DNA from: Candidatus Saccharimonadota bacterium
GTDB taxonomy: Archaea > Nanobdellota > Nanobdellia > Pacearchaeales > GW2011-AR1
NCBI GenBank assembly: GCA_041659445.1
Contig: JBAZYG010000002.1
Span: forward strand, 60,001-92,000
Direction of reading: 5' to 3'
Length of the DNA: 32,000 nucleotides
Below the pieces are notes generated by a model. That model searched no databases, was not told the DNA's origin, and was given only the letters and a program-made list of their open reading frames with translations. Both the position numbers and the translations under genes were made by a program. The number at the start of each line of letters is the position of its first letter. The first letter of the stretch is position 1. Of this stretch, positions 4,250-27,001 are shown piece by piece.

Positions 4250-5458
4250 TCAAAAATCTAAGGAATTTTCTAAAATTTCTTTAACTTTTCCCAAAATATC
4301 CTTAGAAATTGCTAATTTTATTTCCCTCATTCTACCACCTCTTCCCTTCGAAATTACTCTTACATTAATAATCCCCAACATATCAAATTCCTGAATAATA
4401 TCTGAAACTCTTCTTTGAGTCAAAATTTCAGACTTGTCTCTAATACATAAATCACGATAAAAATTATAAACATCTCCTGTAAAAAATGGTTCTTCTTTAT
4501 TTTTTTCTGAAAGTTTAAATATAGAATACAAAACCAATTGAAATTGCTTAGGCTCTGATGCAACTATATCTAAAATTTTATCTTTTTCTATTTTGTTGTT
4601 TGCTTCATCGATATGTTTAAAAGAAATTTTTTTATCTCCAATTCTTTCAGCCAATTCTCCTGCAACCCTTAACAAATCCAGTGCTCTTCTTGCATCACCG
4701 TGTTCTCTAGCAGCATAAGCAGCACATTTTGCAATAACCCCCTCACTTAGAATATTTTCTCTAAATGCTTTTTCAGCTCGCTTATTTAAAATATCTTGAA
4801 TTTGCAAGGCATTATAAGGCGGAAAAACAATTTCTTCTTCTGATAATGAACTTCTAACTCGGGGATCTAATTCATCTAAAAAAGTTAAATTATTACTTAT
4901 CCCAACAATAGAAATTTGAGATTTAGATAATTCAGTATTTAATCTTGTTAAATTGTATAAAAAATTATTTGAAATTTTTTTAACAGTTTGATCAATTTCA
5001 TCTAAAACTAAAATAACTGATTGCTTTTTTGAATCAATTAATTCTATAAAAGAGTTATAAACTGCTTGAGTTGGAAGCCCTGTTGATGGAACTTCTCCCC
5101 CTAATTTTTTAATAAGTTCTGCTAAAATTCTATATTCTGTATCAGATACTTTTTTTAATTTACAATTTAAATATTCTATCCTTAATTCAAAATTGGAATT
5201 CTTATTAAAACGCTTTAAAAGTTCGTCTTTTACAAATTGAATTGAAAGAGTTTTTCCAGTTCCAGTCTTTCCATATAAAAAAAGATTACTTGTTTTTTCT
5301 CCTCTTAAAATTGGAGCTAAAATAGATGCAATTTGCTTTATTTGTTCATCCCTGTGAATTATTGCTTCAGGTTTATAATTTGTTTGTAATAAAGATTTAT
5401 CTTTAAAAATTAAATTTTTATCAAAAGATTCAAAAATTTTATCTAATTCATTTTTCAT
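4250..5458 (-). CDS. cdc6: Orc1/Cdc6 replication initiator
   Basis: 402 aa with Walker A GKTGTGKT, Walker B VLDEID, GISN sensor region and a C-terminal winged helix (SKGRGGRMREI). It is adjacent to an AT-rich noncoding region. Confidence 0.93.
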   Translation of the reverse strand: MKNELDKIFESFDKNLIFKDKSLLQTNYKPEAIIHRDEQIKQIASILAPILRGEKTSNLFLYGKTGTGKTLSIQFVKDELLKRFNKNSNFELRIEYLNCKLKKVSDTEYRILAELIKKLGGEVPSTGLPTQAVYNSFIELIDSKKQSVILVLDEIDQTVKKISNNFLYNLTRLNTELSKSQISIVGISNNLTFLDELDPRVRSSLSEEEIVFPPYNALQIQDILNKRAEKAFRENILSEGVIAKCAAYAAREHGDARRALDLLRVAGELAERIGDKKISFKHIDEANNKIEKDKILDIVASEPKQFQLVLYSIFKLSEKNKEEPFFTGDVYNFYRDLCIRDKSEILTQRRVSDIIQEFDMLGIINVRVISKGRGGRMREIKLAISKDILGKVKEILENSLDF

Positions 5459-5936
5459 TTTATTTTTTTAATTAATATCTCTTTGCTTATTTCTTATTTT
5501 ATACCCTACACGTATATTTCTTATGGAAAAACAAACTAATAAGAAAATACCAACGAAAAAAAGGAATGAATTATATAAAGGGTTATAACTACTTCTAAAG
5601 AAAGACGCCTAGATTTCTAGTGGAAAAGGCAAAAATAAAAAGCAATTAGATATCCTTTAATTTAAAAGAATAAAAATATATTCTAATTTAAAATAATTTA
5701 TTATATTTCGAACTAAGATATAATTTATTATTAAAATTAAGAGGTATCTTATTCTCTTAATTTTAAATTAAAAGAAAGAATATATATACTACAAAATATA
5801 TATTATAATATATATAATATAATATATAAATATTTATAAATGAAATATTTAAAAAAATAAATTTAAATTATTAAAAAAATAAATTCCAATAGAAATCAAA
5901 GGGTGAGGGACTACCCTCTTTTTAAAGTTAAAAGTA
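5459..5936. other. Candidate replication origin (oriC): ORB-like elements flanking an AT-rich unwinding element
   Basis: 478 bp noncoding region directly upstream of cdc6. It contains TTTCTAGTGGAAAAGG (5614-5629), TTCTTATGGAAAAAC (5518-5532) and TTCCAATAGAAATCAAAGGGTGAGGG (5884-5909, with a G-string). Between them is a nearly pure A/T TATATA-type stretch (about 5770-5880). Confidence 0.65.
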
Positions 5937-6197
5937 TTAAATAATGTCTTCTTCAGAAACTATAATAAAATCTCCAATAGCAATAATTGCACTATATGGA
6001 ATTAAATATTCATTTGAAGGAGTCTTTTCTAAATTAAGGTTTCTAGTGTAAATAGTAGCATCTTTTATAACTAAATTTATCAATTCTCCAGATTTTGTTT
6101 CAAAAGTAACATCTCGTACAAAACCTAATCTTTTACCTTCTTTTGTTACAACCATCTTACCAATGATTATTTTATAGGGTATTTTTTCTGTTTGCAT
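5937..6197 (-). CDS. PRC-barrel domain protein
   Basis: 86 aa; the pattern GKMVVTKEGKRLGFVRDVTFETKSGELINLVI...IPYSAIIAIGDFIIV is typical of small archaeal PRC-barrel proteins. Confidence 0.7.
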   Translation of the reverse strand: MQTEKIPYKIIIGKMVVTKEGKRLGFVRDVTFETKSGELINLVIKDATIYTRNLNLEKTPSNEYLIPYSAIIAIGDFIIVSEEDII

Positions 6198-6339: not shown

Positions 6340-6759
6340 ATGAAATTAGCAGGTTTTAACTTCACAAAAATTGTGGGAGAACGATCTAATATAAAATTTG
6401 AAGAATTAAAAATAAATTCAACATTAGATTTAAAAGAAATAAAAGAAATTTCTTCTGATCTTATTAAAACAAAAGAAGATTTACTTGGAGTTCGTTTCTT
6501 CTATAGTATTGAATATTCTCAAAAGGTTGCAAAAATAGAATTTGAAGGAAATATTATAATTTCTTTAGACTCAAAGCAAGCTAAAGAGATTCTTAAAGAA
6601 TGGGATGATAAAAAAGTAAAAAGTTCTTTTAAAGAAGCAATTTTTAATTTGATTTTAAATAAATGTAATATTAAAGCCTTACAATTAGAAGAAGAATTGG
6701 GTCTTCCTATACACTTTAAGTTGCCTTCTATAAAAATTGAAGAACCTAAAAAAGATTAA
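6340..6759 (+). CDS. hypothetical protein
   Basis: 139 aa ORF in clean intergenic context with host-like composition; no motif recognised. Confidence 0.6.
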   Translation: MKLAGFNFTKIVGERSNIKFEELKINSTLDLKEIKEISSDLIKTKEDLLGVRFFYSIEYSQKVAKIEFEGNIIISLDSKQAKEILKEWDDKKVKSSFKEAIFNLILNKCNIKALQLEEELGLPIHFKLPSIKIEEPKKD

Positions 6760-6806: not shown

Positions 6807-7085
6807 ATGAAAATATCTTCTAAGAAAAAAGATAAAATTTTAGAACAAATTCTAGCTTACTTATTCTCTCAAAATCCAAAACCTATCTTTACAGCATATA
6901 TTGCATTAGAAATAGCAAGAGATGAAGAATTCACAAAAAAACTTTTGTTAGAATTAAAACAAAAAAACTTAATTTCAGAAATAAAGAAAAATCCTTCTGG
7001 GCGAGATTATCTTAAAAGAGCCCGTTGGAAGTTAACAGAAGAAGCATATGTTCTTTATAAAAATATTCAAGAAGTTAAAAAGTAA
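6807..7085 (+). CDS. small winged-helix DNA-binding protein (putative transcription regulator)
   Basis: 92 aa; ILEQILAYL...IFTAYIALEIARDEEFTKKLLLELKQKNLISE...W has a wHTH-like helix-turn-helix plus wing pattern. Confidence 0.5.
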   Translation: MKISSKKKDKILEQILAYLFSQNPKPIFTAYIALEIARDEEFTKKLLLELKQKNLISEIKKNPSGRDYLKRARWKLTEEAYVLYKNIQEVKK

Positions 7086-7135
7086 AAGATATATTCCACT
7101 ACATTAAATCTTTTAAACAGACAATCATTCTTTTT

Positions 7136-7846
7136 ATGATGGATAATTTAAAAGAGGCGTTTAATAAAATTAAAGAAGATATTCTTTTTTTAAATAAAGA
7201 AATAATCATCTTAAAGAAATCCTTACAAGAAATATCTTTAGAGCTTAAGGAAATACCTTTAATATCTAGAAAAATATCTGATTTGGGATTACAAACACAT
7301 ATGCTTGAAAATAAGACAAATTCTATTTTAAAAAAGACAGATATTTTACCTTTTAAGCCTTTAGAAGGTAAATATTTGGGTATTTCCACAGGAAACAAGG
7401 GGGTTCCAACAGACAAACAGACAAACAGACAAACAGACAAACAAAGGGAATTAATGGGTATTTCAAGGGGTTTTTTACAAAAAGAGCCTCTTTTATTAAA
7501 GCAAGAGAAGATGTCTATTGATTCTGCAGCATATGTATTAGATTCACTAGAAGAACTTAAAAAAGAACTTAAAATCAAGTTTAAAAAATTAACAGATCAA
7601 GAAATGCTTGTTTTCTCGACAATTTATCAAATTGACGAAGAAAAAGGTTTTTGTGATTACAAAACACTTTCTTTAAAGATGAATCTAACTGAAAGTTCAA
7701 TACGAGACTATGTGAGAAGATTAATATTAAAAGAAATGCCTATAAATAAGATTAAAGTTAATAATAAGGAAATTCACCTTCAAATATCTGAAAATCTTAA
7801 AAAAATTACCACCTTATCAACTATTTTGAAACTTAGAGAAGTATAA
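7136..7846 (+). CDS. coiled-coil / tandem-repeat / C-terminal wHTH protein (paralog of 8037-8651)
   Basis: 236 aa. N-terminal heptad-like region, central PTDKQTNRQTDKQ encoded by (ACAGACAA)x4, and C-terminal LTDQEMLVFSTIY...LTESSIRDYVRRLILKEMPI HTH. Confidence 0.75.
   Translation: MMDNLKEAFNKIKEDILFLNKEIIILKKSLQEISLELKEIPLISRKISDLGLQTHMLENKTNSILKKTDILPFKPLEGKYLGISTGNKGVPTDKQTNRQTDKQRELMGISRGFLQKEPLLLKQEKMSIDSAAYVLDSLEELKKELKIKFKKLTDQEMLVFSTIYQIDEEKGFCDYKTLSLKMNLTESSIRDYVRRLILKEMPINKIKVNNKEIHLQISENLKKITTLSTILKLREV
7409..7443 (+). repeat. 8-bp tandem repeat (ACAGACAA) x4 plus a partial unit, inside the CDS
   Basis: Read directly: acagacaa acagacaa acagacaa acagacaa aca. The unit length is not a multiple of 3. 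Confidence 0.95.
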
Positions 7847-7907
7847 AATTTTGGCTTTTATCGTCGTGGATTTGTCTTTTTTTACTTTTTATTCTTTGAA
7901 AATTAAT

Positions 7908-7927
7908 TTATTCGTTTAAACGAATAA
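7908..7927. repeat. perfect 20-bp palindrome TTATTCGTTTAAACGAATAA between convergent genes
   Basis: Read directly; the sequence is its own reverse complement. It could be a bidirectional terminator hairpin or a protein-binding site. Confidence 0.9.
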
Positions 7928-8036
7928 CTATAAAACTATTTTAAACGTTTATTTAACTCTCATTTTGTGATTCCGAAGTTCTTTTTTTTGAAAGTTAAAA
8001 ATCTTTTTATCTCATTTTTTTGTTTTATGCTACATT

Positions 8037-8651
8037 TTATTGCTTTTCTTTAGGTTTTTTATTTAAATTAACTCTCACTTTTGATTTTTTTAAGAGTATT
8101 TCTTTCATATTTTCAGGTATAAACACTCTCTTTTTGCCATTTTGTTCTATTATTTCATCAATTAACCCCTCACTTTTTTGTTTTATTGAGTTTAATTGAC
8201 CTCTAATTGTTGTTTTTTCTTTACTAAGCATTGAAGCAAGATCTTCATAACTGAGTTTTAATTCACTATTTAAAAGAATCCAAATTATTGCTTTTTCAGT
8301 TATTGAAAATTGTTTTAAATTTGGTGTTTGAACACCTGTTTGAACACCTGTTTGAACAGCATAAACACCTGTTTGTTTTTTTGACAAGCCTGAGGGTGTT
8401 TTAAACAGCCTGTTTGTTTTTAATTCATTCATTATTGAAATAACATTTTTTAAACTTTCTAATTCATTTTTTATATTCGATAAATTCTCTTTAATCTCGT
8501 TTATATCTCTTTTTTGCAAATCTTTTTCAGAATCAAGATGTTTAATCCAACCACTAACAGCAGAAATATCTTTTTTTACAGATTCAAAACTCTTTTTTGT
8601 ATCTTCTTTAATCTGATTTATCTCTTTTTTTTGTTTAAATAATCCAAACAT
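8037..8651 (-). CDS. coiled-coil / tandem-repeat / C-terminal wHTH protein (paralog of 7136-7846)
   Basis: 204 aa. N-terminal coiled coil, central VQTGVQTGVQT repeat, and C-terminal ITEKAIIWILL...LSYEDLASMLSKEKTTIRGQLNSIKQK HTH. Confidence 0.75.
   Translation of the reverse strand: MFGLFKQKKEINQIKEDTKKSFESVKKDISAVSGWIKHLDSEKDLQKRDINEIKENLSNIKNELESLKNVISIMNELKTNRLFKTPSGLSKKQTGVYAVQTGVQTGVQTPNLKQFSITEKAIIWILLNSELKLSYEDLASMLSKEKTTIRGQLNSIKQKSEGLIDEIIEQNGKKRVFIPENMKEILLKKSKVRVNLNKKPKEKQ
8324..8375. repeat. 12-bp in-frame tandem repeat (CTGTTTGAACAC-like, about 3 units plus one more nearby) inside the CDS
   Basis: Read directly: gtgtttgaacac ctgtttgaacac ctgtttgaacag cataaacacctgtttg. It encodes the QTGV repeats on the minus strand. 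Confidence 0.9.
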
Positions 8652-8767
8652 ATATTTATTTGTAAGAAATACTTTAAAAATGTTTTCTTTTTAGACGGAA
8701 AATTTCATTGTTTTAATTCTAAAAGATATAATAAATGTTGATAAATTTTCCTTTTTTAAGAGCTTTT

Positions 8768-8941
8768 AAACACCTATAAACAGCCAAAAAACACCAAAAA
8801 CAGCCTGTTTAAACAGCATTAAACATTTAAAAAATATTTTAAACACCTAAAAAAGTTTTTTTCTTTGCTTTAAACAGCTGTTTAAATTAAAGTTTTTTAA
8901 ATATTTAATCGACGATAAACACCAAAAACAGCCTGTTTAAA
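8768..8941. promoter_or_regulatory. operator-like cluster of AAACAG(C)CTGTTT / AAACACC sites upstream of 8037-8651
   Basis: Exact 25-bp direct repeat AAACACCAAAAACAGCCTGTTTAAA at 8788-8813 (approximate) and 8917-8941. Perfect 18-bp palindrome TTTAAACAGCTGTTTAAA at 8869-8886. Extra AAACACC half-sites at about 8768 and 8841. Confidence 0.7.
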
Positions 8942-9045
8942 AAATAAAAATCAAATGAATTTAGTGTGAATAAAGTTTACCTAAGTATAAACAATCTTTT
9001 TTTTATTATAACAATCTTTAAAAATAAACAATAATTCTTTGCAAT

Positions 9046-17995: not shown

Positions 17996-18036
17996 CACAA
18001 AATAATTTTTAATATTAACAATTTAAAACTTTAATC

Positions 18037-18234
18037 ATGGAAACAGCAACTTTTTTTCTTTTAATCGGAGCGATAGTTTTCATTTTTTTAGGAGCAATTT
18101 TACTTGTCGCTTCTTCAAAAAAAGAAACCTACCATTTTCCCTGGCTGTCTGTAGCATGCCTAATCGTGGCTTTTGCATTTTGTTTAGCCGCCCTCATCGT
18201 GCAAAACTCGGCCGGCGTTCATCCAGCGAACTAA
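18037..18234 (+). CDS. small two-TM membrane protein
   Basis: 65 aa with two hydrophobic helices (FFLLIGAIVFIFLGAILLVA; SVACLIVAFAFCLAALIV). Confidence 0.6.
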   Translation: METATFFLLIGAIVFIFLGAILLVASSKKETYHFPWLSVACLIVAFAFCLAALIVQNSAGVHPAN

Positions 18235-18265
18235 CTTGCAGGAATTTTAACATCTTTTTAAAACA

Positions 18266-18421
18266 ATGGAACAAATAACTTTAATCATACTCGGAGCAGG
18301 ACTTTCCTGTTTAGGAGTATTAAATTTATTTGATTACAAACATAGAGTAAACAGATCTTCCATTCTTGGAATGGGATGGGGTTTAGCTATGTTTATTTTA
18401 GGGATTTGTATCCTTAAATAA
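18266..18421 (+). CDS. small two-TM membrane protein (51 aa)
   Basis: Hand-translated MEQITLIILGAGLSCLGVLNLFDYKHRVNRSSILGMGWGLAMFILGICILK. It has the same TTTAAAACA-ATGGAA start context as other island genes and is below the track cutoff. Confidence 0.45.
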   Translation: MEQITLIILGAGLSCLGVLNLFDYKHRVNRSSILGMGWGLAMFILGICILK

Positions 18422-18673
18422 TCAAATAGAAATCTGCTAATTTTGGATTAGCCGAGTTGATGCATATCTTGGGAACAGAAGCATCAAATTCTTTTTTATC
18501 TTTTCTTGCCTGCACTTCGTCGATGGATAAGAAGTTCGATTCTTCTTGCAGGCACAATTCAGTGTTAAAAAATTCAAAAACAATTTCGACAAAGCGGAAG
18601 GCGGTTTTGTCAAATTAATTAAAAACAAACCCTTAAAAAAAAGTGCCATAAGGAGGCGCTAGCCGAATGTATC

Positions 18674-19300
18674 ATGAAAAATTTAAATGGAAAAAGTTTT
18701 GATGAACCTGAGGAAGAAAGACTGGTAAATCCCAAAGTTTATCAGGCAAAACCCGAACGGGTTTTTACATATCCCGAAGGGACTTTTGGGAGGTTGTGTG
18801 AAGAACAACACTGCAATCCTGATATTCTAATCTCTTCAGAGACAAAAATATCTCTATTTTCAAAAGTAGGTAATCCGGGGTATCGAATGTATACCTACAA
18901 AATTGAAAACAATGAAACAGACGCGTTGAGCGTCTACGAACCATGGGCGAGAATTGAGCTCAAAAAAGATTTTTTCCTTGAAAGGAAAAATCATGCCAAG
19001 GAATGTGGCCGGATTGCAAAAGAGCTTGGACTTCCGTTTGAATTAATTCTGGCTGTCGGCATTGAGCCAGAAAAACGCCAGGCTCTTCTCCAGTTGAAAG
19101 AAAAAGCCGAATGGTTCAGGGAACTGATCCACGAGCTGAAGGAATGCGGAATTAATAAGAGGAAAATGTCTATTCTCGATCTCATCGGGAGAGAGACATA
19201 CGACTCTTTGGATGTCGAAGGTATGGGGCAAAAAAATTCCTCGACAATTGCCCAATTTCTCACAAGGGGAATAACCATCGAGGGTTATTCTAAAAAATAA
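18674..19300 (+). CDS. hypothetical soluble protein
   Basis: 208 aa with island-type composition and no signal peptide; no motif recognised. Confidence 0.65.
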   Translation: MKNLNGKSFDEPEEERLVNPKVYQAKPERVFTYPEGTFGRLCEEQHCNPDILISSETKISLFSKVGNPGYRMYTYKIENNETDALSVYEPWARIELKKDFFLERKNHAKECGRIAKELGLPFELILAVGIEPEKRQALLQLKEKAEWFRELIHELKECGINKRKMSILDLIGRETYDSLDVEGMGQKNSSTIAQFLTRGITIEGYSKK

Positions 19301-19387
19301 TAATTAACTCGGCAGAAATAAGGCACTGCAATGAGACAAAATATTAACTATTAATTGGATAGGGACATGCTATCCATTTTATTTTAA

Positions 19388-19459
19388 TTCATTATAGCTC
19401 AGTTGGTAGAGCATCTGATTTTATTCAGAAGGTCATAGGTTCGAATCCTATTAATGGAA
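19388..19459 (+). tRNA. tRNA-like gene with bacterial-type D-arm and an aberrant 6-nt anticodon loop (Lys-UUU-like, or pseudo-tRNA)
   Basis: TTCATTA-TA-GCTC-AGTTGGTA-GAGC-A-TCTGA-TTTTAT-TCAGA-AGGTC-ATAGG-TTCGAAT-CCTAT-TAATGGA-A. All four stems pair, but the total is 72 nt because the anticodon loop is one nt short. Confidence 0.6.
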
Positions 19460-19460
19460 C

Positions 19461-19910
19461 AATGTTCTCTTTTGAACATTTTAGCTTCATCCCTTGAAGC
19501 TTGCTCATACATGAGCATTTCGTTTCTCAATTTCTTTGAGAGACAAACATTTTTCTTTTTTTAATCTGATTATCATGTTTTTTTAATCAGGTTTCATTCG
19601 CTGAAATTTCCTTCAGCAAACATTTTCCAAAAACTCTTTAGATTTCAGAGCCAAAACAAAATCAATTTGTTATTTTATTTATTTTCAGTTATTATTTATT
19701 TTTAATTATTTTTCAAATTAATTACTTTATTAGTATTTAGTTAAGTTCTTTTTATTTCAATTATTTTCTTATCATTATTTTATTTTTCTTTTCGTCATTT
19801 CGTTCTGAAGTGACAAACATTTTTCTTAGTTTTCTTTTTAGTTGCTCTTTTTCATTAATTTATTTTGAGCAACTTTCTTCGGCTAATTCCAGCCAAACAT
19901 TTTCCCTTTT
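19461..19910 (+). repeat. array of short hairpins, four to five followed by a conserved AAACATTTT(T)C tail
   Basis: Stems TCTCAA/TTGAGA (tail at 19545), GCTGAA/TTCAGC (tail at 19618), GTCATTTC/GAAGTGAC (tail at 19814) and GGCT/AGCC (tail at 19895), plus AATGTTC/GAACATT at 19461-19480. More hairpins at 19483-19501, 19502-19517, 19566-19590 and 19842-19873. Confidence 0.8.
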
Positions 19911-19966
19911 AATTTTTCTTCTGAATTTTTTTTAAACAAATATTAACAATTTAATTTCAAAACGTC

Positions 19967-20806
19967 ATGAAAAATTTAATTTCAAAAAATTGTTCATCGA
20001 TTCTGCCGTTCTTTCTGATTGCATTAATTGCTATCTTTGCATTTTGCTGTGCAAGACCAGTGAATGCTCAATCCACGTGGGATTGTGAAAGGTATTCAGA
20101 TCCCTTTTCATTCAACGTCAAACAAGTCAATAGTTCAATTTGGATTTTGAGTTATTCGATTAAGAATGATTCAATTATGACATTCAACCATGCCGGCGTG
20201 ACCTCTTTGGAGTTGACTTCAAATGATATAATTCTTGATTCCATTGAGGTTGTCTTTGTGTCAAAATTTCCTTTTTCAAGTACACAAATTCAAGCCAGTC
20301 TTAAAAAAGTTTATTTTGAAAATTCCCCACAATTAGTGAGGCAAGATGTTATTTTCAAAACTTTTCCGAAGTGGCCAGACAAGAAAATAGAAACGTTTTA
20401 CATTTACTGCAAAAAAGAAGGAAATAAAGTAACTTTCTATGATGAATTGGTATTTACTAAAACCAAATCAAATTGGCTTTGGCCGACAGCGTGCGTTATA
20501 GTTTTAATTGGGTTTTTTTTAATTGATGCAATTCAAAAGATTGGGGAAAGAAGAAATTATCTCAAAAATGAAAGCAGGGTAGAAAAGTTTTTTTCAGGAT
20601 TTTTTGCAAATACTTTTTGCAGTTTTGGAGAAGTAATTTTCATCCTTATATTAATTATATTATTTCTTTTTAAGATAATGTCCCTAGTAGAAGATTATTC
20701 TTTAGATAAAATTGGAATAATCTTTTATCTGTCTCTGATTTTCTTGTTCTTTCTCGGAAAATTTATTCTTTACAAAATCTTTTTCCGAGGAATTAAAAAA
20801 TACTAA
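19967..20806 (+). CDS. secreted-domain protein with a C-terminal multi-TM region
   Basis: 279 aa with a signal peptide ending VNA|Q, a soluble domain of about 140 aa, then 3-4 hydrophobic helices. Confidence 0.7.
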   Translation: MKNLISKNCSSILPFFLIALIAIFAFCCARPVNAQSTWDCERYSDPFSFNVKQVNSSIWILSYSIKNDSIMTFNHAGVTSLELTSNDIILDSIEVVFVSKFPFSSTQIQASLKKVYFENSPQLVRQDVIFKTFPKWPDKKIETFYIYCKKEGNKVTFYDELVFTKTKSNWLWPTACVIVLIGFFLIDAIQKIGERRNYLKNESRVEKFFSGFFANTFCSFGEVIFILILIILFLFKIMSLVEDYSLDKIGIIFYLSLIFLFFLGKFILYKIFFRGIKKY

Positions 20807-20813
20807 CTTCTTT

Positions 20814-20890
20814 TAAGGGCAAGTTAAAGAAAAGGATTTTCTACGTTTTGCCTTTTTAGATTAGAGATAGCAATCTAATACTTGCCCTTA
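20814..20890 (+). ncRNA. 77-nt Y-shaped structured element (11-bp closing stem plus two internal hairpins), function unknown; may act as a terminator
   Basis: TAAGGGCAAGT (20814-20824) pairs with ACTTGCCCTTA (20880-20890). Inner hairpins are AAAAGG..CCTTTT and TAGATT..AATCTA. It is followed by TTTTC. Confidence 0.4.
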
Positions 20891-20942
20891 TTTTCAAAAC
20901 TTTTTTTCAAAATTAATTCACCAATTCAAAATTTTAAACGCC

Positions 20943-21632
20943 ATGAAAAATTTAATTTCTTTACTTAAAAAAGTAGGAGTCTTTAAAGCAATCGGAATTT
21001 CTGCTTTAATTGGCTTTATTTTGGTAATAATTTTTCTTGTGCTATTACCAAAAAATTCAAATTCACAAGAAATTTCTTCTCCTGAAAAATGGAAGATTAA
21101 TTCCATAAATTTTGTCGCTGGCGAAACACCCTTGACAAAAGGAATTACTTTAAGCCCAGTTTTTTCAAAAGGTAAATCAACAATAATGATAGATCTAAAC
21201 CAGGAATTAGGAGAACTTATGTTTTTTTATTCTCCTAAAAAATGGTGTTCCATCGGGCCATCAGTAGGGTTCTTCAAGAATACATCTTGGGTAGGACCAA
21301 TTGCTTCATTAAACATTTTTAATGGACATGTTACAACTCTTAACTGGGTGGGATGGAGTTTTGGAAACCCTGAAGCAATCGGAGGAGGAACTACAAATTC
21401 CAACGTTGATTTCTTGTTTTCCTTTCACCAGGTTTCTGTCAATTACTTCGGTGTAGAAGGTTATTATATTCTGCAACACTACCAAAAAAATTTTCCCGGG
21501 CACATTGTAGGGGTTAAGTATACTTTTGCCCTCGGAGATAATTTTTCCCTTTTCGGAGGTTATGCTTATATGTTCCGAGCAGATAAATCCCTTTGGTCCG
21601 CAGGTTTCATTTTGTTATTTCCAGAAAAATAA
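20943..21632 (+). CDS. secreted beta-rich protein, putative beta-barrel (paralog of 21636-22316)
   Basis: 229 aa with a signal/anchor ending SNS|Q and alternating hydrophobic strands. It shares the YSPKKWxSIGPSVG block with the next gene (YSPKEWITFGLSAG). Confidence 0.65.
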   Translation: MKNLISLLKKVGVFKAIGISALIGFILVIIFLVLLPKNSNSQEISSPEKWKINSINFVAGETPLTKGITLSPVFSKGKSTIMIDLNQELGELMFFYSPKKWCSIGPSVGFFKNTSWVGPIASLNIFNGHVTTLNWVGWSFGNPEAIGGGTTNSNVDFLFSFHQVSVNYFGVEGYYILQHYQKNFPGHIVGVKYTFALGDNFSLFGGYAYMFRADKSLWSAGFILLFPEK

Positions 21633-21635
21633 ACC

Positions 21636-22316
21636 ATGAAAGCAAATTTCAAATTAAAAGTTCCCGGTCCATTCACAATTGTAGAATGGATTTTCATCAT
21701 GATGATTGTATTGGCAATCGGAACTTGTTCCAGAACCAATGCTCAAACTTCTCAAAATTTCTTCAAGATAAATGTTCATGTTCAAGTTGTTTCAGACGAG
21801 CAATCTGAAACAAGTAAAAAGTTCAGAACATTTTACCAAGAGGAATTTTATTTTAATCATAAATTTTCTTCGAATTTAGCTTTCACAAGTTTTGCAACAG
21901 TTAGAAATGATCGGGGTGAAATTTATTCTGGATTAGAGTACTCACCAAAAGAATGGATAACTTTTGGTTTGAGTGCTGGTCTAGATGTTGCAAAAGAAGC
22001 TGGTTCATCGTCAGCAACTTTGAGAACTGCAACATCTGTTTCCCTCAAGCCAGTAGAACAATTTGAATTCAAAGGAATTTTTGAATATAGCTCTGAGGAT
22101 TACTGGTTTTTGATTGAGCCAAAATACAATGGAAAGAAATTTTCATTGAGTTTGATTGCCCGTCGATATCATGGTGTCGGGTTTTCATTTTATTGGCCGA
22201 TTGCCAAGGGTAATCTGACTTTATGGTACTATGCGGGATATCTTCAAGGAAAATTCCTCGGAGGTGATGATAACCCACGAGCCTCTTCAGCCTTAGGGTT
22301 GAAAGTTAATTTTTAA
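21636..22316 (+). CDS. outer-membrane-type beta-barrel-like protein
   Basis: 226 aa with a signal peptide ending TNA|Q and amphipathic beta-strand periodicity. The C-terminus is ALGLKVNF, with terminal Phe and alternating hydrophobics (bacterial OMP beta-signal). Confidence 0.65.
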   Translation: MKANFKLKVPGPFTIVEWIFIMMIVLAIGTCSRTNAQTSQNFFKINVHVQVVSDEQSETSKKFRTFYQEEFYFNHKFSSNLAFTSFATVRNDRGEIYSGLEYSPKEWITFGLSAGLDVAKEAGSSSATLRTATSVSLKPVEQFEFKGIFEYSSEDYWFLIEPKYNGKKFSLSLIARRYHGVGFSFYWPIAKGNLTLWYYAGYLQGKFLGGDDNPRASSALGLKVNF

Positions 22317-22347
22317 TTTACTTAATACTAATTTAATTTTTAAAACA

Positions 22348-22842
22348 ATGGAAAATTTTCTTGAAAACAAATCAGTTGCAAAAATCTGCTTGATTCTTGC
22401 AATTATCATCATGGTGATTCTGTCTCTCTCGCCAATAGATGCAAAGTCTCAAGTGATTGTTAATGACGCTGATTCAAGTGTTGTCCTTGACATTCAGAGC
22501 ACCTCTGGCGGTATTCTCATTTCCCGGATGACAGAAGCTCAACGTGACAGCATCTCAGAACCAGCGAATGGTTTGCTGATTTATCAAACAACCGTTCCAA
22601 TGGGTTTTTATTTTTGGGACGGAGTCCAGTGGAACAGGCTCGTAAGTGAAAATGCAGAAGGTATCATACAATATGGTGAGGCAGAATTTTCTGGAGAGCC
22701 TTCCCAGGAATTATTTGAAAGTGTTTTTGGTATCAGACAATTTCATTTTCATTTCACTCTGCTAAGCACAAATCAGAATAAAGTCTTCACTGGCGCCTAC
22801 ATTACTGGGCATGGGTTTTTCTATGAAAAACTCAAGCAATAA
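22348..22842 (+). CDS. secreted protein with an STSGGILISRMT..QRD.I..P..GLLIYQT....W motif
   Basis: 164 aa with a signal peptide ending AKS|Q. From memory, the motif resembles one common in Bacteroidota secreted hypothetical proteins; this was not verified. Confidence 0.6.
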   Translation: MENFLENKSVAKICLILAIIIMVILSLSPIDAKSQVIVNDADSSVVLDIQSTSGGILISRMTEAQRDSISEPANGLLIYQTTVPMGFYFWDGVQWNRLVSENAEGIIQYGEAEFSGEPSQELFESVFGIRQFHFHFTLLSTNQNKVFTGAYITGHGFFYEKLKQ

Positions 22843-22946
22843 CAACTACAACCCTTAATTGGGATTCTGCATTTCTAAATTTCTTTGGCATTATTAAAGA
22901 AATTAAATTCTCAAAATGTTTATTAATCATCAAATTTCAAAATGTC

Positions 22947-23093
22947 ATGGCAAAAAAGAATTTTGCAACCAGAATCATCTTAGAAAATGATGGAGTTTCT
23001 AAAGATGAAGAAATTCCTCTCAAAGCCAAAATGAAAAATATACATAAAACCTACCATCCACTAAAAGGGATGAAAGGAAAAAAAGCAGAATAA
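22947..23093 (+). CDS. small basic protein (48 aa)
   Basis: Hand-translated MAKKNFATRIILENDGVSKDEEIPLKAKMKNIHKTYHPLKGMKGKKAE. It is preceded by the island leader AAATTTCAAAATGTC-ATG and followed by a 10-bp-stem hairpin. Confidence 0.45.
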   Translation: MAKKNFATRIILENDGVSKDEEIPLKAKMKNIHKTYHPLKGMKGKKAE

Positions 23094-23236
23094 AACCCAT
23101 CAGCAACGCAAAAGGCAGGAACTTTTAATCTAAATTAACTAATGGTTTTTGATGAATCTCTATCTTCCCCTGCCTTTTTAATTTGAAAACAATTTATGTC
23201 AAAATATTAATTCAAAACTTTTAATTTCAAAACGTC

Positions 23237-23746
23237 ATGAAAACAAAAGAGAACAATTTTCTGTATTGGGGAGTTGTGATTGTTTTTTTAGTAACGATCA
23301 TATCCCTGGTCTTAATGTTTGTTTCTATAATTTCAAAAGCAAATAAAAAAGATTTAGAAACAAAATCTTCCAACACTTCAAACGTTGTTTTTGTGGAGAA
23401 TTCTGATTCTTCAATAATAATAAACGCAGAAGTTATCATCTCAGAATTCAACGGAATTTCTGATTCCGTTGATTACCAAACCAGCGAGGATTTTATAGAT
23501 ATTTCCTTAGCAATAGAACAATATTATCCTTGCTCAGATACTACTCTCTGTGACAGCCTGAGACAAAATTTTATTGACGAGCTTAGAAAAATTTCAGATG
23601 TTAATGTCCTTGAAATTTTTCTCGAGACAATCAATAGGGTTTTCATCAACACAGACTTTTCAAAAACCGATGACATTAAATCATTAATTACTCAGAGAGT
23701 TAATGATTTATACGCCCTTGAATCATATCAAGAACTCAAAAAATAA
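23237..23746 (+). CDS. N-terminally anchored extracytoplasmic protein
   Basis: 169 aa with one TM (LYWGVVIVFLVTIISLVLMFVSII), and the leader TTAATTTCAAAACGTC-ATG, nearly identical to that of 19967. Confidence 0.65.
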   Translation: MKTKENNFLYWGVVIVFLVTIISLVLMFVSIISKANKKDLETKSSNTSNVVFVENSDSSIIINAEVIISEFNGISDSVDYQTSEDFIDISLAIEQYYPCSDTTLCDSLRQNFIDELRKISDVNVLEIFLETINRVFINTDFSKTDDIKSLITQRVNDLYALESYQELKK

Positions 23747-23785
23747 TTTTCAAAACTTTTTTCAAAACAATTTAAATTAAATGTC

Positions 23786-24178
23786 ATGGAAAAATTTGGT
23801 ATTTATTTAGTATGGATGCTGATACTTCTTGTATTTGCGTTCTTAAATCGCACCATCCTGTATTATGGAGCAATCTGTCCAGCCGTCAGTGGAAGACCTG
23901 TTGCTGACTTAAGACCTTGGAGAATATTCTCTTGGGTTTTCGGAGGAATTTCCTTTATTGTTTACAATTTTCTTTTGTTAGTTCCAATCGACAGCGAGTT
24001 TAAAGATTTCTTCAAACCAGTGTGCCTGATTTTTGCTGGAACCTGTGTTCTGGCATTAATTCTTTTTGCCCTGCTAAGTTCTGATGCAATTTTGATGACT
24101 ATCCGTCGGAGATTTAATCTCGTTGGAATTGCGTTAGGAATTGTCTTGTGCCTAACGCTTTCATTCTTCCTGTTATAA
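23786..24178 (+). CDS. four-TM integral membrane protein
   Basis: 130 aa with four hydrophobic segments. Confidence 0.65.
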   Translation: MEKFGIYLVWMLILLVFAFLNRTILYYGAICPAVSGRPVADLRPWRIFSWVFGGISFIVYNFLLLVPIDSEFKDFFKPVCLIFAGTCVLALILFALLSSDAILMTIRRRFNLVGIALGIVLCLTLSFFLL

Positions 24179-24184
24179 CATTCA

Positions 24185-24224
24185 TTGCATTATGTATCTC
24201 TTGAAGATTATAATGCATTTCTTT
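24185..24224 (+). terminator. hairpin plus T-run (intrinsic-terminator-like)
   Basis: TGCATTAT (24185-24192) pairs with ATAATGCA (24209-24216), followed by TTTCTTTG. Confidence 0.55.
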
Positions 24225-24300
24225 GATTTCAATTACTCAATTTAATTTGAGACAAAATATTTTTCACAAATTTCTATTTATTAATTCAAAAATTTTTACC

Positions 24301-25152
24301 ATGAAAAAAATCGTTTTTTTATTCGGAATTTTCTTCCTTTTTTTAGGAAGTATCTTTTCCCAAGACATCATCTATAAAAGAGATGGGTCCAGAATTCAAT
24401 CAGTGGTTTTGAAAATCACTGAGACGTCGATAGAATATCAATATTTCAATCAACCCGACGGGCCTGTGCGAGTACTCTCTCTAAAAGATGTGTATATGGT
24501 CAGGTACAACGACGGAACAGAAGAACAATTCACATCTGAAGTTCCTGAAGTTCAACCTGAACCTGAGGCTGTTTCCACCACATCTATTATGCCGACGACA
24601 ACAATCAGTCAACCTGTTTCAACAGAACCAATTCAGCCACCAGTTACAACCAAACAAAAATCATCTGGAAAATTCTCCCTCAATGCTGGAGGGTTTCTCC
24701 ATATGTATTACAACGAGGAAATGTCCTCGACATTTGGCACCATGCCTTTGTTCGGCTTGGGTCTTGGCGTGGACATGGATAATATATTTTTCACGCTGAG
24801 ATATAATACTGGCTCTGTGAAGTATGATGAGGATAACTGGACATTAAAGCATTCCCAGTTGGACTTGCTGTTCGATTTAAAGTGGTATAAATCACAGGGA
24901 AGCAAAGCCCAAGTATATTCTGGAATTGGGCTTTCTCTTAATACATTGAAAGATGAAGGTCCAGACAACGAGAAAGAAAAAGGAACAGGTGCAGGGGTTT
25001 TGCTCGAGCTTGGCTTTGATATCTTACTTGCAAATAATTTATATTTGTTTGTCACGGCAACATCTGTGATAGGGAATGTAAATATTTACGAAGAGAAAGT
25101 TAACATCAGCGGAGAACGACTCGGAGTCGGGCTCAAGGTTAACTTTGATTAA
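24301..25152 (+). CDS. outer-membrane-type beta-barrel protein with an N-terminal small domain and a Pro/Thr-rich linker
   Basis: Start taken at MKKIVFLFGIFFLFLGSIFS|QD. It has an N-domain IIYKRDGSRIQSVVLKITETSIEYQYFNQPDGPVRVLSLKDVYMVRYNDGTEEQF, a PEPEAVSTTSIMPTTT linker, about 8 amphipathic strands, and ends GVGLKVNFD. Confidence 0.7.
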   Translation: MKKIVFLFGIFFLFLGSIFSQDIIYKRDGSRIQSVVLKITETSIEYQYFNQPDGPVRVLSLKDVYMVRYNDGTEEQFTSEVPEVQPEPEAVSTTSIMPTTTISQPVSTEPIQPPVTTKQKSSGKFSLNAGGFLHMYYNEEMSSTFGTMPLFGLGLGVDMDNIFFTLRYNTGSVKYDEDNWTLKHSQLDLLFDLKWYKSQGSKAQVYSGIGLSLNTLKDEGPDNEKEKGTGAGVLLELGFDILLANNLYLFVTATSVIGNVNIYEEKVNISGERLGVGLKVNFD

Positions 25153-25269
25153 CTTTTAAATTTTCAAAAAATCCTTAATCGAAATTCTAAAATTAGTTTG
25201 AAGAAAAGAGCATAACTGTGAGTGTATGCTTTTAAATTTTCAAAATGTCTAATAACAAATTTTTTAACA

Positions 25270-26055
25270 ATGGAAACAAAAACAAAAAAAATCACATGGT
25301 GGGACGTAGCATTTGTCGCCATCGTGGTGACTTTGGTGGGGTTTGTACTTTGGGTTTGTCTCACACCGCCGCCCAACAAAATAACCGACGAGAGAGCCCA
25401 ACAAACCCAAGATTCACTCTCAAACCAGTATCGATTTGAGTGTAACTTAATTTCTTTCAACTCAGAACCAGTTCCGGCCTTTTTTGAATGGTTGGAATTG
25501 CAAGGAGAGGGATACACTCCAGTAGGTAATAATCCGGTTCTGGTACCCATACGTTCAGGACAGGAAATGATTTATTCGTATGAAGGTAAAATGTATAAAG
25601 GCATTTTACCAAACACAACCTACTTCATGTGGGAGCCAGCTTCAGGTATGGAATTCAAATGTCTCTCCAGAAATGGAGCAATTATATCCATAACTCCTTA
25701 TGAAACAGGTGAGCCAGTCCAGTATTTTATCCGTCGATACAATGAATTCTGGAGTTTCGAGGAATTAAAAATTCGTAATTATCGTTATTCATTGAACATC
25801 ACCGCAATTTATCCTTGGGGAGAAATTCTCATCGATAACTACGAAGATCTGTTGATGAATTCTTCTGTAAAAAGGTTTCGCTCCTGGGGACCTGCTTATG
25901 AAGTTCAGGTCGGGCAAGCTGAGTTAAATGGGTGGGAAGATTTTTTCCTCGTCAGTCAGGATGGGAAAGCATGGCTTACCCGCGAACAAGAGCAACGACG
26001 ACGTGAAAGTCAGTTCATACATAACGTCGGACCTGGAGGTTTTATACTTCCATAA
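25270..26055 (+). CDS. N-terminally anchored extracytoplasmic protein
   Basis: Start taken at METKTKKITWWDVAFVAIVVTLVGFVLWVCL (single TM); the remaining roughly 230 aa are soluble with no recognised motif. Confidence 0.65.
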   Translation: METKTKKITWWDVAFVAIVVTLVGFVLWVCLTPPPNKITDERAQQTQDSLSNQYRFECNLISFNSEPVPAFFEWLELQGEGYTPVGNNPVLVPIRSGQEMIYSYEGKMYKGILPNTTYFMWEPASGMEFKCLSRNGAIISITPYETGEPVQYFIRRYNEFWSFEELKIRNYRYSLNITAIYPWGEILIDNYEDLLMNSSVKRFRSWGPAYEVQVGQAELNGWEDFFLVSQDGKAWLTREQEQRRRESQFIHNVGPGGFILP

Positions 26056-26246
26056 TTCCCCCAATTATTAAACCCAAAATGTGAAGTTGACAAGAATGTG
26101 ACTTGATGTGCACATTTTTTCTTTTGAACAAATTATTAATTTAAAAAAGAAAGGAGGAAAAAATAATTAAGAGTGTTGGTATGAACATAACCTTATTTTT
26201 AAGGTGTATGTAAAATTATAATTATTCACCTAAATTTTAAATCATC

Positions 26247-26813
26247 ATGAAAAAGATTCTTTTTATTTTCTTTGGACTACTCTTTGCGAGTAGTCTTTTT
26301 GCAATCGAACCGACAGTACCTGCTACCAGCACCGGCGAGAATTCCCCGACGATTTTCACTGCTGAGCAGAAAGCTGAAGCCATCAACGCTTTCGTGACCA
26401 GTGGAAGCATGGAAATGGCTATTCCCGGATTGCCTGATGCACCGCCGCCGGTGAGGTATGAGAACATCTTAGGTTTTGAAGTAACCGCATGTAACTCCAT
26501 GCACATTGCGTATGGGGTGACCGGGGGTAATGAAGAACCTGCTTTTTGGGTTTACCCATGGGGAGGAACCGTTAGAGTAGAAAAAACAGTTTGGCCCCAA
26601 GCAGGACAGCAAGTTTGGGTAAAAGTATTATCCTGTTCAAGCCCACAGCAAGGATATTGCAATCTACATTTAGACCGAAGGGTTTGGTATCCAGATCAAG
26701 GTCCTATGGGCGAGCCCTTATTGTGCTTGTATGGATGGATATGGTGTTATACCGCGGGAAGTATCCTACCTCAAACAGGATACACCGAGGCCGGTTATTG
26801 TGTGACTGAATAG
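26247..26813 (+). CDS. secreted Cys/Trp-rich protein
   Basis: 188 aa with signal peptide MKKILFIFFGLLFASSLFA|IE. It is the G+C-richest gene in the window and its C-terminal half contains 7 Cys. Confidence 0.65.
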   Translation: MKKILFIFFGLLFASSLFAIEPTVPATSTGENSPTIFTAEQKAEAINAFVTSGSMEMAIPGLPDAPPPVRYENILGFEVTACNSMHIAYGVTGGNEEPAFWVYPWGGTVRVEKTVWPQAGQQVWVKVLSCSSPQQGYCNLHLDRRVWYPDQGPMGEPLLCLYGWIWCYTAGSILPQTGYTEAGYCVTE

Positions 26814-26828
26814 CCTATCCTGCTCTTC

Positions 26829-26870
26829 AAGGACTTTATTTCTCTCGAGGATTAAAGTCCTTTTCTTTTG
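26829..26870 (+). terminator. hairpin plus T-run (intrinsic-terminator-like)
   Basis: AAGGACTTTA (26829-26838) pairs with TAAAGTCCTT (26853-26862), followed by TTCTTTTG. Confidence 0.6.
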
Positions 26871-26900
26871 ATTTTAATTTCCTTTAAGGAATCAAAATAT

Positions 26901-27001
26901 AAGGCGTTGGTCAGAAGCAATTCCTGAAGTAATTGCACAAGTTGCGAAAAATCAAATTTTTGTGTGAGAATTCATCCAACCAAGGGAAAATCCAACGCCT
27001 T
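26901..27001 (+). ncRNA. about 100-nt element closed by a 10-bp stem (possible structured RNA), function unknown
   Basis: AAGGCGTTGG (26901-26910) pairs with CCAACGCCTT (26992-27001). It has an internal GCAATT..AATTGC hairpin and lies at the right edge of the G+C-rich island. Confidence 0.3.

Follow-up and report, generated by a model that had tools for sequence, protein, structure and literature searches.

Candidate protein-binding sites within the linker-coding stretches of two convergent winged-helix genes beside a Pacearchaeota replication origin

The DNA described here is a stretch of 32,000 nucleotides (assembly GCA_041659445.1, contig JBAZYG010000002.1, positions 60,001 to 92,000), referred to as the window, which has a GC content of about 25% and belongs to the genome of a Pacearchaeota (DPANN) archaeon. 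The window encodes an archaeal Cdc6/Orc1 (4250-5458, minus strand) and the small subunit of DNA polymerase D (PolD), both identified by domain search, while two convergent genes, gene 1 (7136..7846, plus strand) and gene 2 (8037..8651, minus strand), lie 1.5-3 kb to the right of the cdc6-linked origin (oriC). Both genes carry repeats in the stretch coding for a linker which precedes a winged helix-turn-helix (wHTH) domain. The repeat DNA of both is under selection at the nucleotide level and, judging from sequence comparison, the repeats are on balance probably DNA elements resembling protein-binding sites, written into the linker-coding stretches of this gene pair beside the origin.

The convergent gene pair

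Gene 2 codes for a protein of 204 amino acids with an N-terminal helix, a predicted disordered linker and a MarR-like wHTH, as assessed by alignment, AlphaFold and Foldseek. A reading made earlier from the letters of the window alone (the sequence-only reading) had given both proteins a layout of coiled coil, short repeat and wHTH, and for gene 2 this is borne out by the AlphaFold model, which has a helix at residues 2-79, a low-confidence segment at residues 80-107 (predicted local distance difference test score, pLDDT, <50) with no secondary structure until residue 111, and the wHTH at residues 117-177. Foldseek matches to this last domain include MepR, MarR, SlyA and AbfR2 (E 7e-5 to 1e-3), and its winged helix also resembles the winged-helix domains of ORC2, at the level of fold only. 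A sequence search against the PDB gave no significant match. No curated family for gene 2 was found in Pfam, NCBIfam or PHROG, no Pfam HTH model scored above its gathering threshold, and the NCBIfam scores for Sta1 (16.2 bits, cut-off 80) and Lrs14 (14.5 bits, cut-off 90) do not reach the family threshold. The likeness to MarR, Lrs14 and Sta1 is one of fold in the C-terminal domain; unlike these proteins, that of gene 2 has an extra N-terminal helix of 80 residues and a linker of 30 residues, and scores about 16 bits against cut-offs of 80-90.

More than 2300 homologues of gene 2 were found, with about 70% identity across metagenome-assembled genomes (MAGs) of Pacearchaeota, Woesearchaeota and Nanoarchaeia, and these form 281 clusters at 50% identity. 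An identical protein is recorded from a Candidatus Pacearchaeota MAG. This is an uncharacterised protein family, recognisable by the embedded sites described below, and a literature search on the motif and on DPANN regulators returned nothing relevant.

Gene 1 codes for a protein of 236 amino acids with a coiled coil, a low-complexity linker and a wHTH, according to the list of open reading frames and the ortholog alignment. Its true start may be the second ATG (7139), as the orthologues begin with MD. The protein scores 22.9 bits against DnaD_N, which is under the cut-off of 27. The two genes had been taken for paralogues, but this relationship is a weak one, since BLASTP gave nothing and hhalign aligned only an N-terminal KxxFxxVKxDI motif (E 4e-5, probability 70%).

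The ortholog comparison is based on 80 loci from different species (L001-L080), fetched with 3 kb on each side per genome. Motif counts relative to the gene 2 start codon refer to 73 loci and gene 1 motif counts to 73 orthologues, and for distant homologues the DNA of seven members was used (among them L081-L085 and L087). The gene 1 ortholog is convergent with gene 2 in 80 of the 80 related loci, and the gene order cdc6, PRC-barrel gene, o6340, 92-aa winged-helix gene, gene 1 and gene 2 is kept in most of them.

Palindrome arrays within and upstream of gene 2

Gene 2 is associated with two arrays of sites. The intragenic array (8323..8415) encodes K-T-N-R-L-F-K-T-P...K-Q-T-G-V-Y-A-V-Q-T-G-V-Q-T-G-V-Q-T-P, which is the predicted disordered linker, and holds AAACAGCCTGTTT (8403), AAACACCTGTTT (8363) and 2.8 copies of TGTTTGAACACC (8325-8358; Tandem Repeats Finder, TRF). 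The upstream array (8765..8941) lies 115-290 bp before the gene 2 start codon and has about ten half-sites of the form TAAACA(G/C)(C/G) together with three full palindromes (8798, 8872, 8926). The 13-mer AAACAGCCTGTTT occurs exactly three times in the window, once in the coding sequence (8403) and twice upstream (8798, 8926), and the palindrome at 8872, AAACAGCTGTTT, is contained in a perfect 18-bp palindrome, TTTAAACAGCTGTTTAAA (8869..8886). There is also an exact 25-bp direct repeat on the plus strand, AAACACCAAAAACAGCCTGTTTAAA (8789..8813 and 8917-8941, 100% identity in the repeat search). What the sequence-only reading had reported of repeats, palindromes and the 25-bp repeat is all present where it was placed. 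Nearer to the gene, a probable TATA box, TTTTTAAA (8673..8682, minus strand), is found about 25-30 nt before the ATG, and the orthologues have ...aaaacatttttaaa... in the same place. Going by archaeal promoter architecture, this is probably the promoter element of gene 2, and its distance from the ATG would imply a leaderless or near-leaderless mRNA.

The motifs are concentrated in this part of the window, with seven of the nine AACA-N2-3-TGTT palindromes falling within 8331-8937. The pattern AAACASSTGTT has six matches against 0.09 expected, a number reached in none of 100 shuffles, and AAACASC has 19 matches against 7.2 expected, 14 of which are inside 8323-8932. A chance origin of the motifs was rejected on the basis of the shuffles.

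Both arrays recur in the orthologues. AAACAG-N0-3-CTGTTT is found upstream of gene 2 in 66 of the 73 loci, at -300 to -100, meaning that palindromes at the gene's own promoter are conserved, and 8-mers such as ACAGGCTG are enriched 100-270 fold upstream of gene 2 relative to the flanks. Half-sites amount to 8.5 per locus at -300 to -100 and 7.6 per locus at +200 to +400 (background about 0.1 per 100 bp), and of the full palindromes, 171 fall into the bins at -300 and -200 and 115 into that at +200, leaving 17 for all other positions. Within the coding sequence there are four to five copies of TTTAAACA-SS(N)-TGTTTAAA at +240 to +340 with a 12-bp phasing. Upstream, the half-sites are spaced by 10, 20/23, 31, 42/43 and 53 bp, corresponding to a helical phasing of about 10.5 bp, and palindromes so phased would fit dimeric binding to double-stranded DNA. 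The pairing of an upstream array with one in the linker supports the earlier proposal that operator sites may be embedded in the coding sequence of gene 2.

Codon usage in the linker differs from that of the remainder of the gene. Glycine is encoded by GGT in 97 of 97 cases (29% elsewhere in the gene), alanine by GCT in 99% (38% elsewhere) and valine by GTA in 0% (27% elsewhere), with threonine as ACA in 94% and glutamine as CAA in 95%. Judged column by column, the main frozen block is F83-L112, and many other conserved residues of the protein have saturated codons. The peptide KQTxVYAVQTxVQTxVQTP is nearly invariant in the alignment, which includes more than 20 genera-level relatives, and it falls in the segment predicted to be disordered, so that the most conserved peptide of the protein would be its disordered part. 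The variable residue of this linker is G, A or P, encoded by GGT, GCT or CCT, which supplies the S-S centre of the upstream palindromes; the linker DNA would thereby read AAACA-SS-TGTT and belong to the same family as those palindromes. In the window, the coding-sequence copy of the 13-mer is spelled with two rare codons, AGG CTG, within N-R-L-F; the corresponding peptide of most relatives is N-R-V-F.

The distant homologues show the same DNA words in other reading frames. The word CTGTCCAAACAG yields L-S-K-Q and not A-V-Q-T in L084 and L085, and the linker DNA of L084 has TGTCCAA five times, with full TGTCCAAACA or near variants in three frames of one linker. A third distant group has GGACGGAC/GTCCGTCC repeats in its linker. 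The FMNV subfamily (L081-L083) has the recognition helix IVTVRRHIN in place of the RSTIRGQIN of the main family, and the palindrome embedded in its linker DNA is another one, CGTTCATGAACG, spelled with codons seldom used in AT-rich genomes. The helix S-T-x-R-G-Q-I-N accompanies AAACAG sites in the main family and L084/L085, and V-T-V-R-R-H-I-N accompanies CGTTCATGAACG sites in FMNV, so that helix and site may co-vary, judging from just two to three independent groups.

The combination of frozen synonymous sites and one word read in several frames indicates that the object of selection is a nucleic acid, with the peptide following from it. Of the suggestions in the sequence-only reading, the one best supported by the data derives the peptide repeat from selection on DNA sites, as a by-product. 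Selection at the peptide level as the main cause was rejected, given that the DNA word is found in other frames and that its product is predicted to be disordered.

Frozen synonymous sites alone cannot separate a DNA function from an RNA function, and palindromes can fold as RNA. The conserved sequences might on these grounds act as RNA instead, through mRNA structure, as the target of a small RNA (sRNA) or antisense RNA, or in translational autoregulation. This is very improbable, however, as the same motif lies upstream of the TATA box, where it occurs in both orientations with helical phasing, and the palindromes have centres of 0-3 nt and form no hairpin on their own. Moreover, genomes with GCT throughout (L006, L053) still end the array with AACACC, leaving a GGUGUU/AACACC stem uncompensated, Rfam gave nothing at the motif sites in the window or in 16 loci, and the corresponding block of gene 1 matches a known DNA element (see below). 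Recognition of double-stranded DNA by a dimeric wHTH protein would be the simplest reading of the gene 2 arrays.

An origin-type box and tetranucleotide repeats within gene 1

The intergenic region between cdc6 and the PRC-barrel gene (5459..5936) was identified as oriC from its sequence and a scan for origin recognition boxes (ORBs). It has ORB-like boxes at 5517 (minus), 5614 (minus) and 5885 (plus), the last of these being TTCCAATAGAAATCAAAGGGTGAGGG, and an AT-rich stretch with AT repeats (5780-5870) is located between them. This three-box layout recurs in orthologous loci, and the region has the sequence features of a classical archaeal origin adjoining cdc6. The upstream array of gene 2 was also considered as the chromosomal origin and rejected, because the AT-rich oriC with its ORBs adjoins cdc6 and the palindrome is unlike an ORB.

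A further box of this type, TTTCCACAGGAAACAAGGGGG (7383..7403, plus strand), is found inside the coding sequence of gene 1, where it encodes I-S-T-G-N-K-G-V. This is the one place in the 32-kb window that matches TTCCA-N3-GAAAY-N1-4-GGGG (from 7384), and 71 of the 73 gene 1 orthologues have the pattern as well. Across all loci the ORB pattern has 94 matches, 77 of which are in the gene 1 position, 13 at oriC by cdc6 and four in gene 2 promoters. The consensus of the gene 1 boxes, taTTTCCAcaGGAAATgaAGGGGTT, matches that of the oriC-side boxes of the same genomes, ATTTCCAtanGAAATnaaGG.G. The dyad core of an ORB (TTCCA-N3-GGAAA, with its TTCC and GAA motifs) is recognisable both in the window (TTTCCACAGGAAAC) and in the consensus over 79 elements (TTTCCAcaGGAAAT), and a G-string of the kind that follows a few bases past the dyad in long ORBs is represented in the window by AAGGGGG. 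As for location, the gene 1 box is 1.5 kb from the AT-rich stretch and points the same way as the ORB at 5885, which is the one nearest to it in oriC. It also resembles the Pyrococcus ORBs (...TTTCATTTCCACTGGAA...), in which the TTCC and GAA cores are essential for Cdc6 binding (PMC1904270).

The box is followed by a perfect tandem repeat, (ACAGACAA) x4.5 (7408..7443, plus strand), for which TRF gives a period of 8, 100% matches and the unit AACAGACA; in three frames the repeat reads TDKQTNRQTDKQ. Gene 1 orthologues have (ACAG)n-like CAGACAnAC units with a 12-nt period, and the whole frozen block as DNA is taTTTCCAcaGGAAATgaAGGGGTTcCaACAGACAgACAGA, namely the ORB-type box and then the (ACAG)n-like repeats. 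The frozen residues are 75-103, with GAC for aspartate at 99-100%, CCA for proline at 100%, and GGG and GGA for glycine at 100%. In the box, the codons TCC, GGA, GGG, GTT and CCA are 100% invariant among orthologues, and together with ACA, GAC and AGA they are invariant in at least 70 species, the remainder of the gene being saturated. In the repeats, aspartate is encoded by GAC in 99% of cases against 24% elsewhere, with asparagine as AAC in 90%, histidine as CAC in 100% and arginine as AGA in 100%. The block of gene 1 is more cleanly frozen than that of gene 2. The sequence-only reading had proposed a check of synonymous sites, and in both repeat blocks these turn out to be frozen (GGT 97/97 in gene 2, GAC 99% in gene 1), indicating that the repeat DNA of both genes is selected at the nucleotide level.

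Gene 1-like neighbours of two distant homologues, L084 and L087, retain the ORB-type box at an identity of 28-41%. The tetranucleotide repeat that follows the ORB in L087 (about 2885, minus strand) is (ATTC)n and not (ACAG)n, a repeat beside the G-string being retained with its sequence altered.

Since its unit is not a multiple of three, the gene 1 repeat could be viewed as a contingency locus in which slippage turns the gene on and off, and the gene 2 repeat as the outcome of ordinary low-complexity slippage. The perfect 8-nt unit repeated 4.5 times in the window, (ACAG)n in the orthologues and (ATTC)n in L087 are what such a view would draw on, but it is scarcely credible when set against the orthologues. 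Of the 76 loci with a match, 73 have a gene 1 frame that runs at full length across the repeat, the units are often interrupted (GAC AAA CAG, AAC CAA CAG) with the CAGACA core still at 12-nt spacing, and the same codons across species at saturated divergence point to selection, not within-genome homogenisation. The peptide of gene 2 is, in addition, invariant in its genera-level relatives. Slippage or low complexity as the sole cause of the repeats was rejected, the same codons being found in about 70 species in which other synonymous sites are saturated.

A copy of the repeat motif, AAACAGACAA (7115..7124, plus strand), is located 12 nt before gene 1, where it overlaps the position of the TATA box. 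Within the window, AAACAGAC is found at 7115, 7415, 7423 and 7431, with one further occurrence in the 32 kb. In at least 70 orthologues, cTTTTTATA, a plain TTTTTATA box, stands where the window has AAACAGACAA, and no CAGACA or AAACAGAC motif was found upstream of gene 1 in these. Similarly, the motif scan of orthologous loci detected no CAGACA clusters outside the gene 1 coding sequence. The upstream AAACAGACAA of gene 1 is thus specific to this genome and not conserved. The idea that the internal motif of each gene is repeated in its own upstream region therefore holds for gene 2, with its conserved array in 66 of 73 loci, and fails for gene 1, and a comparison of internal repeats with upstream sites in the orthologues divides the two genes in the same way.

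The sequence-only reading had also taken the internal repeat of gene 1 as a self-operator, which is less fitting: an ORB-type Orc1/Cdc6 box with tetranucleotide repeats after it accounts better for the conserved block. As the block reads as such a box, the invariant peptide S-T-G-N-x-G-V would be the translation of an origin box. CAAACAG, put forward as a core shared by both genes, has seven of its nine window matches in the two repeat blocks, and is no evidence for an operator common to the two genes. A domain-swapping inversion between the two linkers was rejected, their arrays having only 4-7 nt in common.

ORB-like boxes were observed near gene 2 in a few genomes. L035, L048, L049 and L078 have one in the interval that separates the palindrome array from the gene 2 promoter (-110 to -138), with looser matches in L011, L016, L020 and L024.

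Possible roles and further features of the locus

For gene 2, it is proposed that a coiled-coil wHTH dimer, most simply the gene 2 product itself, would occupy both arrays, which are some 500 bp apart. Such a dimer could bridge the arrays into a loop of about 500 bp around the promoter, or could block RNA polymerase within the gene, and in either case the outcome would be dose-sensitive autoregulation beside the origin. For gene 1, Orc1/Cdc6 would bind the embedded box and couple the gene, or the DNA stretch in which it lies, to the state of the origin.

Several observations weigh against this account of the sites. The block has three wHTH genes, and a gene 1-like neighbour persists in the distant loci, so that the gene 2 product is not the sole constant candidate for the binder. 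Three FMNV loci have no copy of the intragenic palindrome in the short upstream DNA available, which suggests that the pairing of upstream and internal sites is not universal. Co-variation of the centre dinucleotide between upstream and coding-sequence sites is weak in the main family (rho 0.26, p 0.05), and the CAGACA/(ACAG)n repeats after the ORB are without an assigned partner. Finally, two frozen codon runs of gene 2, TTA TCG TCG and AAA GTG AGA GTT, recur as motifs in the flanking DNA, which favours a dense assembly; the region may be a denser nucleoprotein structure than a simple loop.

The first of these motifs, TTATCGTCG, is found in the orthologues at -300, at about -45, at +170 (codons 57-59, L57-S58-S59) and in the convergent spacer, and about 85-90% of species write its coding copy in gene 2 as TTA TCG TCG, despite the rarity of TCG in these genomes. 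As TTATCGTCG(R), it is located in the window at 7858-7866 and 8910-8918. The second consists of AAAGTGAGAGTT(AAA) repeats, two to six copies of which fill the convergent spacer in L001-L080 (window 7955-7968 and 8070-8082). A frozen AAAGTGAGAGTT copy is present in the 3' end of gene 2 at codons 191-194, where K-V-R-V is encoded by AAA GTG AGA GTT with GTG in 99%, and such repeats persist in the distant homologues (downstream spacers of L081-L083).

The main alternative proposal, for which these motifs also speak, is that the arrays form an extended origin-proximal nucleoprotein domain in which the wHTH proteins are origin-accessory or centromere-like and the ORB of gene 1 takes part in the same assembly. 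The arrays would in that case resemble lambda iterons, parS or tubC and would organise, mark or segregate the origin region. Most of the 80 species share the gene order from cdc6 to gene 2, boxes of the ORB type are found not only at oriC but also inside gene 1 and, in a few genomes, before gene 2 (-110 to -138), and the locus is covered by several more families of motifs. A coiled-coil wHTH architecture combined with arrays of 12-bp phasing is also reminiscent of iteron-binding and centromere-binding proteins. Further agreement comes from the lambda origin in the middle of gene O (PMC7466680) and the Cdc6-bound ORB cluster in dp1 (PMC1904270). On the other hand, no partition nucleoside triphosphatase (NTPase) of the ParA, SegA or TubZ type is encoded in the conserved block, a classical AT-rich oriC with three ORBs already exists 1.5-3 kb away, and the upstream array has a recognisable promoter right behind it, a position usual for operators or activator sites. 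Searches of Pfam, PHROG and NCBIfam gave no match to initiator or partition families for either protein, and no ParB or ParA domain was found in the two proteins or in the conserved block. Taken together, this makes the proposal a rather unlikely one.

Sites embedded in genes are already known from other systems, although the sequence-only reading knew of no described family of this kind. In lambda O, the repeat-coded part acts as a tolerant linker. Lambdoid phages have their origin at a central position in gene O, where the addition of two iterons lengthens the O protein by 13 residues (PMC7466680). The likeness lies in a short dyad-symmetric repeat array in the middle of the gene for a DNA-binding protein and, as with the iterons of O, the arrays are in linker-coding DNA, coinciding with the low-confidence linker. 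The differences are that there is no sequence relationship, that the DNA-binding domain is C-terminal, that the genes are chromosomal archaeal genes with at most a putative initiator role, that a separate ORB-type oriC is nearby and that a second array precedes the promoter of gene 2. Neither initiator homology nor an AT-rich unwinding region of the lambda O type was found; no distinct AT-rich block was found after the gene 2 array, which is a weak test in a genome with 25% GC.

In the Thermococcales, an ORB cluster is located inside dp1 and conserved within the order, and Cdc6 binds this cluster in vivo in Pyrococcus (PMC1904270). Gene 1 is similar in having an ORB-type box in a protein-coding gene near cdc6 and oriC, with a TTCC...GAA core and a G-string. 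Unlike dp1, its host gene codes for a wHTH regulator and not for a polymerase subunit, its box stands alone and precedes tetranucleotide repeats, and this candidate site dictates the invariant S-T-G-N-x-G-V within a low-complexity linker.

Two further groups of systems offer partial parallels. The auxiliary operators lac O2 in lacZ and gal OI in galE are within coding sequences, and multimeric repressors loop the DNA between operators. With these, gene 2 has in common one cluster at or upstream of the promoter and a second a few hundred bp downstream in the coding region; in contrast to them, its sites are in the regulator's own gene, are multiple and set a linker peptide, and any looping would be putative. 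In parS inside spo0J/parB, and in tubC/TubR and parC/ParR, palindromic or phased repeat arrays near an origin or partner gene are bound by a small HTH or wHTH protein encoded at the same place that also autoregulates, whereas neither a ParB domain nor a partition NTPase was found in the present block, which sets the locus apart from the ParB/parS type. The principle of sites inside genes is thus not new. What is new is the protein family, the DPANN setting, the presence of an ORB and a palindrome array in the linkers of two neighbouring regulators, and the frame-independent nature of the evidence.

More tentatively, the 3.5 kb from cdc6 to the gene 2 promoter could be a single self-referential origin-control module, in which the coding sequences of three winged-helix genes are in part binding sites for Orc1/Cdc6 and for their own products, and in which replication state and regulator dosage would be read from one another on the genes themselves. 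The linker peptides (STGNxGV, TDRQ and the QTGV repeats) would then be passenger translations, the DNA word being tolerated in any frame. This is a possibility only, and a fairly doubtful one. To our knowledge, there is no experimental work on how DPANN archaea control their replication or cell cycle, and the locus provides candidate cis-elements and factors at a DPANN replication origin. It is also a clear case of dual coding, in which peptide motifs invariant in hundreds of species are conserved through their DNA, and calls for caution when protein function is inferred from residue conservation.

Three genes between oriC and gene 1 are syntenic with the gene pair in most species. These are the PRC-barrel protein gene (5937-6197), the gene for a 139-aa protein with no function assigned (o6340, 6340-6759) and the gene for a 92-aa winged-helix-like protein (6807-7085). 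Counterparts of the 139-aa protein are found in the loci of distant gene 2 homologues as well (L081, L087). Some distant homologues have integrase or recombinase neighbours, and a mobile-element context was considered for these; it is weakened by the gene 1-like and o6340-like neighbours that are found there too.

The convergent intergenic region (7847..8036) has the conserved motifs TTATCGTCG (7858), TTATTCGTTTAAACGAATAA and AACTCTCA(T/C)TTT (7955), the last of which also occurs at 8070, inside the 3' end of gene 2. The perfect palindrome TTATTCGTTTAAACGAATAA (7908-7927) is positioned just past the gene 1 stop codon and is conserved among orthologues as AGTTATTCGGTnnnCCGAATAACT; a terminator hairpin and a further binding site are both conceivable roles. 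On the other side of gene 2, a distal element, (CTTTAGTGCTTGGC..)GTTGTGCACTAAGGTTAnCTTAGTT, with two small inverted repeats forms the outer edge of the conserved block. It is at about -330 to -400 in orthologous loci and, in a degenerate form, at about 8960-8990 in the window, and has no Rfam match. Elsewhere in the window, a tRNA gene (19388-19460) is a clear Rfam match (64.6 bits), its anticodon being unreadable by ARAGORN, and the part from 18000 to 27000 has a GC content of 0.30-0.40 compared with about 0.25 generally.

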